DNA of 64,000 bases from Promethearchaeota archaeon (GTDB lineage Archaea; Asgardarchaeota; Lokiarchaeia; Sigyniarchaeales; SOKP01): positions 640,001-704,000 of the forward strand of contig JAHPZA010000006.1 in assembly GCA_019058445.1 (NCBI GenBank). Reading direction: 5' to 3'. The notes beneath the pieces were generated by a model. It was not told the origin of the DNA. It saw nothing but the letters and a program-made list of their open reading frames with translations, and did not search any database. Made by a program: the position numbers and the translations under genes. Positions within the stretch are counted from its first letter, which is position 1, and each line of letters starts with the position of its first letter. Below, piece after piece: positions 35,250 to 51,089 of this stretch.

Positions 35250-35364
35250 CAAAGAGGAAGAGAAAGAGGAAATCAATCCTAATCAAAAATAATAATGAGA
35301 ATTAAACATTAAAATGTTTAATAAAGGGCGAAATCCAATGTTCGATAGGATTGAAATTTCCTCC
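35250..35364 (-). ncRNA. Candidate structured small RNA, copy C of a three-member family
   Basis: Outer stem gaggaaa-tcaatccta (35266-35281) / taggattga-aa-tttcctc (35346-35363). Inner hairpin 35301-35322. Invariant ATTGGATTTCGCCCT on the minus strand. TATA at 35387-35394. Confidence 0.65.
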
Positions 35365-35605
35365 AATGCTTATTATATATTTTCATGTATAAAAATGTTT
35401 ACTTTAGTTACACATAGTTAAATTATCAAATATAAGGGAAATCATAATATAGTAAAAAATTAAGATTAAAAATTTATCAAACTCAGACTAAACAAATTAT
35501 TTAGAAAGTTAAAAGCTTAAAAATTAAGATCAATAGAAATTGATTAATCAAATGACTATCTAATTTAAAAATTAAAAAAAAATAAATAAAAAAAAGTAGA
35601 AGTGA

Positions 35606-48068: not shown

Positions 48069-48480
48069 TGAAATGAACTGTATTGCCTGTATTTATATTT
48101 ATTATTATTCTACAACAGCATATTTAATCCTATATAATAGTCTTATAGAATAATATTACTTTTTTATGACCTCAAATTCTTCTCTTAGACTCAATTATTG
48201 GACCATATATTAACGGTCTTTCACACCTTGTCGTACAGTTTAATCTTTTCGATAGGTCTTATGATACAGATCGAATCCAGCATAACCCAATCAGCGATTT
48301 TTTTATTTATATTATATTTTTTTAGGTAGTACCAACGAAAAGAAAAGAGAAAATTTTTTTTGTATACTTCTTATATAAGCTTTATTAGTTATACCTAATA
48401 AATTAGCTTGTTTGTTGCGATAGAACGACAAACTATTTTTATTACTAGCTTTTTATATGACTAATACCAAATACCTATGT

Positions 48481-48608
48481 AAGGAAAGGAATCGTCGAAA
48501 TTCGAATAAACATTGGATTTCGCCCTCTATTAAGCTCTTGTACGAGTTTAATTCTCTCCTACTTATGTAATTTCATTCGAATTTGGATTCCTTTACTCCT
48601 TTTTCTTT
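48481..48608 (+). ncRNA. Candidate structured small RNA, copy A
   Basis: TATA ttttatat at 48451-48458. Stems aaaggaatc/gattccttt and aaattcgaat/attcgaattt. Loop cattggatttcgccct. Inner stem attaagctc/gagtttaat. T-rich tail. Confidence 0.65.
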
Positions 48609-48862
48609 ATTATTACATTAATCTAGTTCGAGATCTGTTCAAACCAACACATAACTTCGAACTTTACAAATTAAATATTTTTTGAATTATTTTTTTTATA
48701 TTAATTGGTTATTAATGACAAAAATTCGAAATTAACAATTCTTTAAGGTTTTTTTCTGGAGGTTTCAGGGGTGATTTTCAAAACCAGGCGTGAGAAAAGT
48801 ATCATAAATTTGAAATTATAATTTAAATTTATATTTCATACAAAAAATATGAGAGGATAATA

Positions 48863-49708
48863 ATGGTTGAAGAAAACTATGAGCATATTAAAATAGAATA
48901 TCCTAAAACTATGGAAAGCGGCACCGTTGATGGGAATTATGCTATAATCTCGATGAATCGACCCGATAAATTGAATGCACTTCAAGTTCAAACTCTAAAA
49001 GAAATCGCCACAGCGTTAGATACTATGGATTTGGATCCCAATATAAGATGTGTATTATTGCGGGGTACGAAAGATTTTACAAAAAAGCCCGCGTTCTCAG
49101 CAGGGGCTGATCTTTCTGCAACTATGGGAAAAAATGTGAAACCGAACATTCCCATACACATGATGCAATCCCAGGAATATAGGCACAAATACTACGATCA
49201 AATTGAAAGATTTTTAAAGCCTTTAATTGCTGGTGTAGATGGATTTGCATTAGGTGGAGGTCTAGAGCTTACTTTGGTATGTGATGTGGTGATTGCCAGC
49301 AAGCGATCGAAATTTGGCTTCCCGGAAATAGCAAGAGGTATTTTTCCTTCCAATGGAGGAACGCAAAGAATGGTGCAGCATATCGGAGCTGCTAGAGTGT
49401 TTAACATGATGTATTTTGGAGAGCATTACAGCGCCGAACAAATGCATGAATGGGGCTTTGTCACCCATGTTGTAGATGATGATAAATTCGAGGATTATCT
49501 AAATGAAAAAATGAAATGGTTAGGAGAAGCTGCTACCGGAAGTTTGGCAATAATCAAAAAGTGCATAAGGTATGGAACCCAGGTGCCCTTAAATATAGGG
49601 TTGCAATTCGAGCAAATGGGATTTGGGGTCAATTCTGCCGCAAAAGATATTCGGGAGGGAATTTCAGCATTCCTTCAAAAAAGAGAGCCAAAATTCAAAG
49701 GCTTTTAA
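48863..49708 (+). CDS. Enoyl-CoA hydratase/isomerase (crotonase)
   Basis: MNRPDKLNAL, AFSAGADL, ALGGGLEL, FPEI..GIFP..GGTQR. Confidence 0.93.
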   Translation: MVEENYEHIKIEYPKTMESGTVDGNYAIISMNRPDKLNALQVQTLKEIATALDTMDLDPNIRCVLLRGTKDFTKKPAFSAGADLSATMGKNVKPNIPIHMMQSQEYRHKYYDQIERFLKPLIAGVDGFALGGGLELTLVCDVVIASKRSKFGFPEIARGIFPSNGGTQRMVQHIGAARVFNMMYFGEHYSAEQMHEWGFVTHVVDDDKFEDYLNEKMKWLGEAATGSLAIIKKCIRYGTQVPLNIGLQFEQMGFGVNSAAKDIREGISAFLQKREPKFKGF

Positions 49709-49819
49709 CTCCTTTTATAAAATTATCTCTTTCTTTTTTTTATGTAGTTACAATATGAAATAAAGATGAAATATTGGACTCCACTACATTTTAAATCAGT
49801 AATGTCTGTAAATTAATTG

Positions 49820-49949
49820 TAAAAAAAAATAGAATCTTTAAATTCGAGCTTAAATTGGATTTCGCCCTTAATTAAACCCCTGGAAGAGTTTAATTATCTT
49901 TTATTTTTTTCTATTTGCTTCGAATTTAGATTCTTTTTTCTCTTCTTTT
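49820..49949 (+). ncRNA. Candidate structured small RNA, copy B
   Basis: TATA ttttaaat at 49789-49796. Stems agaatc/gattct and taaattcga/tcgaattta. Loop attggatttcgccct. Inner stem taattaaac/gtttaatta. Pyrimidine tail. Confidence 0.65.
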
Positions 49950-50018
49950 ATACAGTTAAATAATAAACATTTAATATATTTGAAGATATAATTCTTCAAA
50001 AAGGTGTAACATGCAATA

Positions 50019-50906
50019 ATGAAAGCATTAGAAAATTCTGCTATTCAAATTAATATTGAGGAGTGCACTAAATGTAGAGCCTGTGTAAATGAGTGTAACT
50101 TTTATTATTTTGAGGATAATGAACTTCATCTTATTGAAGATTTTGAAGAATCTTGTTTTGAATGCGGTCATTGCGTCGCAATTTGCCCAGTGAATGCTAT
50201 CATGTTAAAAAATTATCCCCCAGATAAAGTTAAAAAATTACCCGATAGCAAGGAGTTACCAACATTTGATGCGTTGTCAAATCTTTTTCAAATAAGAAGA
50301 TCACGAAGGCAATTTCAAGAGAAATCTGTTCCGAAAGATTTAATAGAAAAGCTTTTAAATGTCGCAGGAGTATATTCAGCAACAGGACATAATGAACAAA
50401 ACGTATATTTCACTGTGGTACAAGATCGTAACTTATTGAAAAAAATTTCAGATGAGATTACTTTGCAAGTAGCAAATCTTGTTAAAAAATTTGAAACAGA
50501 AGAAGGAAGGGAATCATTAAGAAAGGCATTTCCAGAAGATTTATTGAAAAAGGCTGAGAAAGGAATTCCATCTTTTAAGAGGAAATTAATCCGAATTGAA
50601 CAGGGTAAAGAAGTTTGGAGATGGAACGCTGAGTTAATTATAATCCACTCTCCTAAAGACGCGACATCATTAACTGAGAATTGTACGTTAGCAGCAGGGC
50701 AAGTAATGCTTGCTGCAGAAACCTTGGGTTTAGGGACGTGTTCATTGGGTTATATTACAGCATTTTTAAATATATACAAGTCAGTTTCTAAAATTGCACA
50801 GATTCCACGAAAACATACAGTTGGATACTCCCTAGCAATAGGATATCCCGTAGCAAAATATCATAGAATTCCGGCCCGAAAAACACTTAAAGCAAATTGG
50901 TTATGA
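50019..50906 (+). CDS. Ferredoxin-nitroreductase fusion protein
   Basis: CTKCRACVNEC, CFECGHCVAICP, RRSRRQF, LAAETLGLGTC. Confidence 0.92.
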   Translation: MKALENSAIQINIEECTKCRACVNECNFYYFEDNELHLIEDFEESCFECGHCVAICPVNAIMLKNYPPDKVKKLPDSKELPTFDALSNLFQIRRSRRQFQEKSVPKDLIEKLLNVAGVYSATGHNEQNVYFTVVQDRNLLKKISDEITLQVANLVKKFETEEGRESLRKAFPEDLLKKAEKGIPSFKRKLIRIEQGKEVWRWNAELIIIHSPKDATSLTENCTLAAGQVMLAAETLGLGTCSLGYITAFLNIYKSVSKIAQIPRKHTVGYSLAIGYPVAKYHRIPARKTLKANWL

Positions 50907-50957: not shown

Positions 50958-51089
50958 ATGAAAAGGAAATGTGTACTGTGTGGAATGATACGATCCACGA
51001 AAGATCTAGTTTTGCAGGATAATGGTAAATATATTTGCTTTTCTTGCTGGAATAAATATCTCAAAGAAAATAGAGAAAAGGATTCTTAA
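50958..51089 (+). CDS. CxxC-CxxC zinc-finger microprotein (43 aa)
   Basis: MKRKCVLCGMIRSTKDLVLQDNGKYICFSCWNKYLKENREKDS with an AGGT SD. Confidence 0.75.
   Translation: MKRKCVLCGMIRSTKDLVLQDNGKYICFSCWNKYLKENREKDS

Follow-up and report, generated by a model that had tools for sequence, protein, structure and literature searches.

Several families of bacterial 'sibling' small RNAs are known, namely Qrr1-5, the streptococcal csRNAs and LhrC1-5 of Listeria, and bacterial multi-copy sRNAs regulate the translation or stability of mRNAs via a shared seed. Like the RNA described here, these families consist of paralogous genes of about 100 nt with their own promoter and terminator, in which one single-stranded stretch is combined with differing stems. 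However, the present RNA is archaeal, has no sequence or Rfam relation to them and yielded no complementary targets; in addition, its single-stranded stretch forms part of an internal loop, flanked by a terminal clamp and a hairpin, while theirs is a linker or a hairpin loop. The CsrB/RsmZ RNAs also offer many copies of a short single-stranded motif and do not need complementarity to mRNAs, but they carry many motifs per molecule and the present RNA only one, and a candidate CsrA-like partner was not identified here.

A further likeness is to Y RNAs, which are about 100 nt long and combine a long stem of the 5' and 3' ends with a U-rich 3' end and a big internal loop rich in pyrimidines. In Y RNAs the stem with the Ro site is conserved and the loop is variable, whereas here the 5' strand of the loop is invariant and the stem covaries at every pair. 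The similarity to 6S RNA is limited to topology (closing stem, central bubble, terminal stem); the present RNA is smaller, its bubble is asymmetric with one invariant strand, it has no Rfam match and it occurs in one family, and we know of no archaeal 6S RNA. Finally, as in archaeal H/ACA RNAs and snR30/U17, a hairpin with an internal loop could present a sequence to rRNA, and the best 16S site found is a conserved loop. However, the loop strands of about 19 and 25 nt differ from the H/ACA pocket of 5-9 nt, and the rRNA match is not significant. A box ACA/ANA was not found 3' of the lower stem, where the tails read ACUCCUUUUU, UUUUUUCUC and UUUCUCUUCC, and no ANA is conserved in 61 copies. A K-turn or K-loop (sheared G.A, L7Ae) is also absent, P2 (the apical hairpin) being a plain Watson-Crick helix with variable loops, and neither box C (RUGAUGA) nor box D (CUGA) of C/D box sRNAs was present in the copies read.

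The window, i.e., the whole analyzed stretch of 64,000 nt from a Promethearchaeota genome, contains three exact matches to the 15-nt motif ATTGGATTTCGCCCT, at 48512-48526 (+), 49854-49868 (+) and 35325-35339 (-). Allowing up to two mismatches added no match; shuffled sequences gave 0.12 matches on average, and three were reached in 0 of 100 shuffles. This agrees with the first-pass annotation, which had proposed three copies with a common loop motif. The ends of each RNA pair as a two-part stem (P1a, about 6 bp, and P1b, about 10-13 bp), and a large asymmetric internal loop separates this stem from the apical hairpin P2 (about 9-10 bp). The features of the three copies, together with one neighboring gene discussed below, are as follows.

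48483..48612, plus strand: sRNA gene, copy A; the transcript is predicted to start at about the first P1 base and to end in the T-tract
48451..48458, plus strand: TATA box of copy A, TTTTATAT
48485-93 / 48586-94, plus strand: P1a of copy A, AAAGGAATC / GATTCCTTT
48498-507 / 48575-84, plus strand: P1b of copy A, AAATTCGAAT / ATTCGAATTT
48512..48526, plus strand: invariant 15-nt motif of copy A, 5' strand of the internal loop, exact match
48529..48552, plus strand: apical hairpin P2 of copy A, ATTAAGCTC / GAGTTTAAT
49820..49949, plus strand: sRNA gene, copy B, with P2 at about 49870-49895
49789..49796, plus strand: TATA box of copy B, TTTTAAAT
49831-36 / 49929-34, plus strand: P1a of copy B, AGAATC / GATTCT, which A/U pairs can extend
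49839-47 / 49920-28, plus strand: P1b of copy B, TAAATTCGA / TCGAATTTA
49854..49868, plus strand: invariant motif of copy B, exact match
35251..35366, minus strand: sRNA gene, copy C, with P2 at 35322-35301
35388..35395, minus strand: TATA box of copy C, TTTTTATA
35363-57 / 35272-66, minus strand: P1a of copy C, GAGGAAA / TTTCCTC
35354-44 / 35284-73, minus strand: P1b of copy C, TCAATCCTA / TAGGATTGA
35325..35339, minus strand: invariant motif of copy C, exact match
50958..51089, plus strand: zinc-ribbon gene (43 aa, CxxC...CxxC), conserved downstream neighbor of the copy-B lineage

The stems quoted for the three copies in the first-pass annotation were found in the sequence, as were the apical hairpin ATTAA(A/G)C...GTTTAAT and its three different loops, the TATA-like boxes before the copies and the pyrimidine/T tails after them. 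Using the covariance model R1, copy A was matched at 48471-48606 (100.9 bits, E 2e-19), copy B at 49813-49949 (63.8 bits, E 2e-10) and copy C at 35252-35372 on the minus strand (69.1 bits, E 9e-12). Copy A folds at -29.3 kcal/mol (z -3.4), with the 15-nt motif unpaired in both the MFE and centroid folds; copy C folds at -28.2 kcal/mol (z -5.1), and the z value of copy B is -1.6. In an orthologue of copy C from the relative G003 (L032), P2 is kept around a larger loop. Single-sequence folding showed that the opposite strands of the three copies fold about equally well, so the strand was fixed by the G.U and A.C counts given below, the TATA box and the T-tail. The three copies do belong to a real family but are not the whole of it: eight copies were found in this genome by both pattern and R1, and a ninth, diverged one by the model R2, so the window holds three of nine.

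Once the copies of relatives were added, the pairing pattern was far above chance. In an alignment of 62 copies, all 27 modeled base pairs showed double compensatory changes, including all 10 pairs of helix 4 (P2), and the covariation score was 0.595 vs. 0.215. Paired cells amounted to 90.8%, compared with 69.1% in shuffles and 57% after a one-column slide; this alignment was fitted to the model, which is offset only in part by an alignment-free check, where cognate 5' and 3' flanks reached -22.5 kcal/mol and non-cognate ones -14.1 kcal/mol. RNAalifold on a plain MAFFT alignment did not recover the stems and gave only a local alternative hairpin, so a model-guided alignment was needed. The strand of the RNA is fixed by 128 G.U cells vs. 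29 A.C cells. Thus, both the covarying closing stem with its hairpin and the sense strand that the first-pass annotation had derived from wobble pairs hold for the larger set.

While P1 and P2 vary freely in sequence via compensatory substitutions, the 5' strand of the loop (about 19 nt), (A)AC-AUUGGAUUUCGCCCU-C(U), is essentially invariant in at least 13 genera. Conservation of the 15-nt motif was at least 90% in every column and at least 97% in 13 of 15 columns (62 copies). The 3' strand (about 25 nt) is rich in pyrimidines, with a U-run after (U)CUCUCCCU. An alternative pairing, between the motif and the 5' strand of P1, is only about 1.8 kcal/mol better than that of shuffled motifs.

In 43 of 61 copies, the TATA consensus TTTWWAWW falls into a peak 30-33 nt upstream of the first P1 base (about 31 nt), and a run of at least four T residues lies within 30 nt after P1 in 55 of 61, the tail containing 58% T. 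The TATA box assigned to the three copies at first reading is therefore fixed in position in this larger set, which also shows the T-rich end. A positioned TATA box, a T-tract, strand-specific G.U pairs and covarying helices are the features of an independent archaeal RNA gene, and these signals suggest that the copies are independently transcribed.

Of the 131 genomes searched from its own taxonomic family (f1), 121 carry the RNA according to the covariance model, with 1-7 copies each, whereas 0 of 19 genomes of the three sister families f2-f4 do. In a sample of the whole phylum, 24 of 25 f1 genomes were positive, compared with 1 of 125 genomes of other families, this single match being weak. 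The RNA is thus confined to one uncultured Promethearchaeota family. A search of the whole window against Rfam 15 gave no matches at gathering thresholds, and at E values up to 10 only chance-level matches appeared, e.g., AniS (20.5 bits vs. a threshold of 50), which is in line with the novelty claimed earlier. Neither orientation of the motif, whether written as DNA or as RNA, was mentioned in the papers searched, and a search on Asgard sRNAs in general gave nothing relevant. The copies are a real, uncatalogued family of structured RNAs of about 115-130 nt. No known prokaryotes are more closely related to eukaryotes than the Asgard archaea, and no resembling Asgard small non-coding RNA was found in the Rfam release or the literature searched. 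The covariance model is a ready marker for annotating genomes of this family.

A second multi-copy RNA family, about 140 nt long and consisting of several hairpins, shows the sequence GAUUUYGCCCU-CCUCCCCCU-AUUU unpaired and extends it into AUUU..UUUU. It has 5-6 copies in this genome (C1:55333, C1:72670, C4:351111, C6:874933, C9:199078) and was present in 14 of 24 f1 relatives. The two families occur in the same archaeal family and share the same unpaired pyrimidine-rich module; however, in the second one the two halves of the module adjoin directly instead of being separated by P2, and the first four bases of the motif, AUUG, are missing in most copies. No genomic complement to the module of the second family and no Rfam match were found.

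Two paralogues of the RNA, presumably the ancestral ones, keep conserved neighbors, namely a gene for an RNase-Z-like MBL-fold protein and the 43-aa zinc-ribbon gene listed above. The conserved neighbors and candidate partners lie beyond the span delimited by the first-pass annotation. The MBL-fold gene and a GTPase gene stand beside the RNA, which may be on either strand, in about 41 of 114 loci. The MBL-fold protein scored 53 bits against a cut-off of 293 for the RNase Z model and had only weak PDB matches; target sites in its mRNA were inconsistent and weak (-11 to -18 kcal/mol). The zinc-ribbon gene was found in about 29 of 114 loci, on the same strand as the RNA and either 100-220 nt downstream of it or with one gene in between. 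It occurred in 30 of 41 f1 genomes vs. 1 of 19 genomes of f2-f4, but a query of only 43 aa is of limited power when families are distant, and the restriction to f1 may partly be a sensitivity effect. Its protein gave zinc-finger matches in Pfam, all of them subthreshold, and no informative relatives in the Atlas. Overall, the comparative support for the RNA is unusually clean: hundreds of copies, compensation of all modeled pairs, a fixed promoter position, a 15-mer nearly frozen in at least 13 genera, two conserved neighborhoods and a second RNA family sharing the module.

The reading that we prefer, and to which we give about an even chance, is that this is an independently transcribed structured RNA that in trans displays its loop to one partner, probably a protein. 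P1 and P2 would serve only as a scaffold, and the loop would be a single-stranded recognition platform for one conserved partner. A protein is favored over an RNA since no convincing complementary site was found in the genome or in rRNAs and since the same module, contiguous and unpaired, is carried by a second, differently folded RNA family. The RNA would then be a component of an RNP or a titrating decoy. As a counterpoint, 15-19 invariant nucleotides are more than is usual for a protein site, and RNA-RNA recognition often has this appearance.

Recognition of this kind could take the form of sibling sRNAs, in which the invariant loop or the CU-rich strand would seed sites of 6-10 nt in several mRNAs, e.g., at purine-rich starts. 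Such a role, which we consider rather unlikely, is consistent with several copies that have their own promoters, differing stems and one common single-stranded stretch, and the CU-rich strand (CUCUCCCU here, CCUCC in the second family) resembles an anti-Shine-Dalgarno sequence. However, the invariant part of the RNA differs from this SD-like part, the genes inspected appear to lack leaders, with a TATA about 25 nt upstream of the ATG, and complementary sites were not in excess of a reversed-sequence control but fewer. GU-aware full-length complements in the genome comprised only the antisense of the loci themselves plus 3 others vs. 1 in the control, and a duplex scan of contigs C6 and C9 gave 11 sites at or below -22 kcal/mol vs. 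27 for the reversed core (7 self matches removed), the top ones being deep inside ORFs and not at starts; this search covered extended matches in the assembled sequence, and short mRNA seeds of 6-9 nt, tRNAs or the unassembled rRNA of this genome may still be targets. None of the five tRNAs that ARAGORN finds in the assembly overlapped a predicted site. The first-pass annotation had suggested rRNA as the target, i.e., pairing of the motif with the '690 loop' of 16S helix 23 in pre-30S assembly or hibernation. A 16S gene was not found in this genome and the rRNAs of relatives were used instead, one of which (L043 from G011) was discarded because it looks bacterial or plastid-like. The 690 loop, which reads GGGGUGAAAUCUUAU in the same genus, is indeed the best 16S site of the motif there and in another f1 genus, with 12 contiguous pairs at -18.1 kcal/mol. 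Yet these 12 pairs include 3 G.U pairs and are followed by a U.U mismatch, although a perfect match would be expected between two invariant RNAs, and 7% of shuffled motifs reach the same energy. A better 16S complement, GGGGUGAAAUCCUAU, was found in the sister-family genus g17, whose sampled genomes gave no match to the RNA model. In addition, CGCCCUCU and CUCUCCC match AGAGGGCG-GGAGAGG about 36 nt upstream in 16S, but, as reasoned from the sequences, these two matches exclude each other, since they do not follow one another in a compatible order on the two strands. The 23S rRNA and rRNA flanks of relatives offered nothing better than the 690 site, and the motif showed no match as a sense mimic of rRNA. 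The 690 pairing thus exists, but at an energy so often equaled by shuffled motifs we find a role in it very unlikely.

Readings that do not involve a displayed loop of this kind appear less probable still. If the RNA were a cis-acting leader or riboswitch, its loop would bind a ligand, and P1 with the T-tract would stop transcription before the next gene. Copies A, B and C do lie upstream of same-strand genes, 255 nt from a crotonase, 70 nt from a ferredoxin-nitroreductase and 323 nt from an aldo/keto reductase gene, and in the copy-B lineage a nitroreductase or the zinc-ribbon gene is kept downstream. However, a consistent same-strand place upstream of one gene was not found: the downstream genes are unrelated to each other or convergent, which indicates that the RNA is not a leader, for the most conserved paralogue, the gene that follows is convergent in several genera, and in some genera this paralogue and the MBL-fold gene occupy opposite strands. 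The zinc-ribbon gene is preceded by a separate TATA, about 27 nt upstream of the ATG. We therefore hold a leader to be highly improbable. Equally doubtful is an RNA-polymerase decoy like 6S or a Ro/Y-like scaffold, whose stems and bubble would mimic an opened promoter or the RNA of a quality-control RNP. The U-rich tail fits such a role, and so does the layout, in which a bubble of about 19/25 nt separates a long closing stem from a terminal one, but the Rfam 6S and Y models gave no match even at E values up to 10, and 1-9 copies per genome with a range of a single family would be unusual for a housekeeping decoy. The Y-RNA idea of the first-pass annotation also lost ground because the loop and not the stem is conserved and because no TROVE/Ro60 gene (PF05731) was found in this genome (92.6% complete), while controls in Deinococcus and Bacteroides matched. 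A mobile foldback repeat (MITE-like) or a DNA-level site with no functional RNA would account for multiple intergenic copies, tandem pairs about 300 bp apart in some genomes and near-identical copies that break contigs in G019. We regard this candidate as extremely improbable: variable terminal inverted repeats (P1) around an invariant interior are the opposite of what a MITE shows, and orthologous copies keep the same two gene neighborhoods across genera. Moreover, the G.U bias is strand-specific, the promoter position is consistent and the motif is absent from the viral contigs searched.

For the preferred reading, a loop displayed to a protein, candidate partners would be the 43-aa zinc-ribbon protein, the RNase-Z-like MBL-fold protein and, via the U-run, an Sm-like protein. 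The MBL-fold and zinc-ribbon proteins are candidates by adjacency, which is weak evidence of physical contact, as the gene order could be inherited. If one of these neighbors, nuclease-like or zinc-ribbon, is the partner, a new RNP system would be defined; in any case, the RNA provides a concrete, testable way into the RNA-protein biology of an uncultured Asgard lineage. A more specific and, in our opinion, improbable version is that the RNA acts as the specificity or adaptor subunit of a lineage-specific RNP, its loop being read by the zinc-ribbon protein and/or recruiting the MBL-fold hydrolase. The loop module of the second RNA scaffold would then feed the same machine, and the U-run, similar to an Sm site, is reminiscent of snRNP architecture. 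Such a version would amount to an RNA-guided or RNA-regulated nuclease/RNP system present in one Asgard family only. The MBL-fold gene still adjoins one paralogue of the RNA across an inversion.

The 15-mer ATTGGATTTCGCCCT was found exactly at three positions of the window, one in each of the RNA loci A, B and C:

48512-48526, forward strand, motif of copy A
49854-49868, forward strand, motif of copy B
35325-35339, reverse strand, motif of copy C

No additional matches were found in the window at up to two mismatches, with a chance expectation of 0.12. On reading, all three loci contained the elements described in the first-pass annotation, namely a two-part closing stem (P1a and P1b) whose sequence differs from copy to copy, a large internal loop with the motif on its 5' side and a pyrimidine-rich strand on its 3' side, the hairpin P2, ATTAA(A/G)C...GTTTAAT, with three different apical loops, and an upstream TATA-like box together with a T/C-rich tail. 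Single-sequence folding of the three copies gave z-scores of -3.4, -1.6 and -5.1, and the complementary strand folded about equally well; thus, thermodynamics alone settles neither the significance of the structure nor its strand.

Base-pair statistics were obtained from a model-guided alignment of 62 copies, where two-sided changes were revealed at 27 of 27 base pairs. Standard pairs occupied 90.8% of the cells, compared with 69.1% for shuffled partners and 57% when the partner was slid by one column; the corresponding covariation scores were 0.595, 0.215 and 0.17-0.18. Because this alignment was fitted to the model, an alignment-free pairing test was added. The 5' flanks paired with their own 3' flanks at a mean of -22.5 kcal/mol versus -14.1 kcal/mol with those of other copies, and the own 3' flank was among the top three partners for 40 of 58 copies. 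G.U or U.G cells were more numerous than A.C or C.A cells (128 versus 29), which identifies the RNA as the strand carrying ATTGGATTTCGCCCT. Analysis of column conservation showed that A-C-AUUGGAUUUCGCCCU is essentially invariant and the stem columns vary freely; the C(U) after the invariant core, the (U)CUCUCCCU after P2 and the U-run are conserved at approximately 60-90%.

Note that in all copies the 5' strand of P1b (AAAUYYRA) is also able to pair with the segment UUGGAUUU of the motif (e.g., window positions 48498-48520), which gives the 3' strand of P1b a resemblance to the motif. The alternative pairing was on average just 1.8 kcal/mol better than that with shuffled motifs and could be a co-transcriptional folding intermediate.

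Transcription signals were surveyed in 61 copies anchored on the first base of P1. The consensus TTT(A/T)(A/T)A was found at positions -31 to -26, and TTTWWAWW started at -34 to -30 in 43 of the 61 copies. The centre of the archaeal TATA box lies approximately 26-27 nt upstream of the transcription start, so that transcription is expected to start within a few bases of P1. Within 30 nt past P1, 55 of the 61 copies contained a run of at least four T and 36 a run of at least five, and the T content of the first 20 nt was 58%. The predicted transcripts would therefore end just past P1 and measure approximately 115-130 nt, with both ends clamped together.

The window (C6:640001-704000) belongs to G000, an assembly of 4.6 Mb in 10 contigs with 31% G+C. 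Eight copies of the family were found in G000 both by pattern and by covariance model. A ninth, diverged copy (C1:91741-91868, reverse strand) was revealed by the model R2, built from 62 copies; its motif is changed to CCUACAUUUCGCCCC with the stems and hairpin kept, which reflects either decay or a functional variant keeping just AUUUCGCCC. The pattern was present in 34 of 41 relatives, and the reversed control pattern almost never. The earlier model R1, built from ten copies, matched 121 of 131 genomes of the host's family f1 (13 genera, 1-7 copies each) and no genome among 19 from the three sister families in the order. In a phylum-wide sample, R2 matched 24 of 25 f1 genomes; for the 125 genomes from 26 other families, its sole hit was a weak one (E about 1e-3). 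In public records, the carriers of the motif were Promethearchaeota/Promethearchaeia MAGs. Four bacterial 19-mer matches, by our estimate about the chance level for the collection, were all rejected by the model, and the motif was not found in viral contigs. At least 120 metagenome contigs carried it, and some contig names suggest marine sediment.

The genes downstream of the nine G000 copies are unrelated to one another; copies A, B and C are followed by genes encoding an enoyl-CoA hydratase, a ferredoxin-nitroreductase and an aldo/keto reductase, respectively. Most f1 genomes contain two copies, and these paralogues occupy two conserved neighbourhoods, each with a characteristic gene:

G000 C9:216296-217102, forward strand, single-copy MBL-fold gene, 269 aa (orthologues L081, L125-L130)
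window 50958-51089, forward strand, CxxC...CxxC zinc-ribbon ORF, 43 aa, below the usual ORF cut-offs

In the first neighbourhood, a small, Ras/Rab-like GTPase gene is followed by the MBL-fold gene and then by the RNA. The MBL-fold protein matched Pfam Lactamase_B_2, and its similarity to RNase Z was subthreshold. This arrangement was found at about 41 of 114 loci sampled via the 19-mer and, by a coordinate check, in about 20 of 27 genomes. The MBL-fold gene adjoins the RNA in at least five genera, including g3 and g4, where the RNA is inverted and convergent with it. In every genus inspected, this paralogue is followed by a convergent gene. In the second neighbourhood (about 29 of 114 loci), an RNA of the copy-B lineage is followed 100-220 nt downstream by the zinc-ribbon gene, sometimes with an inserted gene between them, which in the window is the nitroreductase. 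The zinc-ribbon gene has its own TATA box approximately 27 nt before the ATG and is apparently leaderless; its protein is 52-78% identical across genera. The search recovered this gene from 30 of 41 f1 genomes versus 1 of 19 sister-family genomes, a restriction that may be overstated owing to the limited reach of a 43-aa query. Two congeneric genomes have one RNA copy immediately upstream of the nitroreductase orthologue; in G000 (window positions 48863-50906), a second RNA copy and the enoyl-CoA hydratase gene additionally stand in front of it, suggestive of duplication or insertion at this locus.

In order to find a complementary RNA, G000 was searched for full-length complements of the motif, with G.U pairs allowed. 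The loci's own antisense strands and three other sites were found (one for the reversed control); at one mismatch, there were 38 complements versus 65 for the control. A duplex-energy scan covered both strands of the whole genome, with a reversed-core control on contigs C6 and C9. On these two contigs, 11 sites at or below -22 kcal/mol were found after removal of seven self hits, versus 27 for the control, i.e., no excess. The best non-self sites lay deep within ORFs and none in tRNA. ARAGORN detected just five tRNA genes in the 4.6-Mb assembly, none of them in the window; the missing ones may be intron-containing, split or simply unassembled.

Since 16S rRNA was not found in the G000 assembly, the rRNAs of relatives were used, namely 16S from G006 (same genus) and G093 (another genus) and 23S from G006. 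The best 16S site of the motif was the 690 loop of helix 23, GGGGUGAAAUCUUAU, as proposed in the first-pass annotation. At -18.1 kcal/mol, the duplex runs for 12 uninterrupted pairs, three of which are G.U, and then meets a U.U mismatch. Shuffled motifs equalled the motif in 7% of cases for 16S and 28% for 23S, and the rRNA flanks added no complementarity. The 16S of the sister genus g17, GGGGUGAAAUCCUAU, is a better complement, and the sampled g17 genomes gave no match to the RNA model. No sense-orientation mimicry of any rRNA segment by the motif was found. The putative 16S of another relative (L043, G011 C106:3345-4170) has a 690 region of bacterial or plastid type, GGAGCGGTGAAATGCGTAGAGATTGG, and its contig probably contaminates the MAG.

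A scan for motif variants revealed a second, undescribed RNA family of approximately 140 nt. Its fold combines three hairpins with a closing stem, GACUCCUGCC.../...GGCAGGAGUC, and leaves a long segment unpaired. G000 contains five exact copies and one variant; five G000 loci and locus L377 are listed below:

C1:55250-55470, reverse strand, second family
C1:72590-72810, reverse strand, second family
C4:351030-351250, reverse strand, second family
C6:874840-875060, forward strand, second family
C9:198985-199200, forward strand, second family
locus L377, second family

Two second-family copies are close neighbours of the present family's copies G and H, at distances within approximately 100 nt. 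The second family was also found in 14 of 24 f1 relatives and in one genome of the sister family f3; it had no match in Rfam. Its unpaired stretch, (U)GAUUU(U/C)GCCCU-CCUCCCCCU-AUUUNAUUUUU (overall GAUUUYGCCCUCCUCCCCCUAUUU..UUUUU), corresponds to the CU-rich strand and U-run of the present family preceded by the eleven 3'-terminal bases of its invariant motif, all fused without P2; in the f3 genome (L009), the full ATTGGATTTCGCCCT is followed immediately by CCTCCCTCT. No genomic or rRNA complement of this stretch was found. That two different scaffolds present the same pyrimidine-rich single strand speaks for this strand as the functional unit, whose two halves are brought together by P2 at the hairpin base in the present family.

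Thus, the loci form a lineage-restricted, multi-copy family of structured-RNA genes. Covariation is strong, the strand is defined, the promoter and terminator signals are positioned and the single-stranded core is invariant. The observation of the first-pass annotation was correct and understated, and its structural and transcriptional reading was supported, but not its specific functional guesses. No Rfam family matched these RNAs. We infer that the RNA would act in trans, with the invariant core serving as a platform for recognition. A protein partner is more probable than an RNA partner, since the DNA examined yielded no extended complement and the module is also carried by a second scaffold; the RNA may then be a component of an RNP or a titrating decoy. 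The neighbouring zinc-ribbon and MBL-fold proteins and, via the U-run, an Sm-like protein are candidates only, as adjacency is not binding. An uncultured Asgard lineage thus carries a new, well-supported RNA family, for which concrete candidate partners can be named.

Among the alternatives, a sibling sRNA pairing through a short seed is the most plausible. An RNA directed at 16S comes next: the 690 loop is its best site, but the shuffled motifs and the g17 rRNA leave it without statistical or co-evolutionary support. A leader or riboswitch is less probable again and is excluded for the best-conserved copy by the convergent downstream gene. A 6S-like or Y-like decoy follows, and a mobile repeat is the least likely, since the termini are variable but the interior is invariant and orthologous positions are retained across genera. 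For H/ACA, C/D and Y RNAs, riboswitches and MITEs, at least one tested defining feature is absent from the present family. Its nearest analogues in mode of organisation are bacterial sibling sRNAs and protein-sponge sRNAs, with no homology. The literature searched did not contain ATTGGATTTCGCCCT.

Some genomes carry tandem same-strand RNA pairs approximately 300 bp apart (G012 C80:32540-32974, G024 C12:48501-48928, G023 C56:13744-14169 and G008 C53:133-547); in G012 and in G024, one member has GCCTT in place of GCCCT. In addition, the ends of the G019 contigs C16, C42, C64 and C76 (L068, L069, L071 and L072) fall within near-identical RNA copies, and these four breaks were probably caused by two recently duplicated copies disrupting the assembly.
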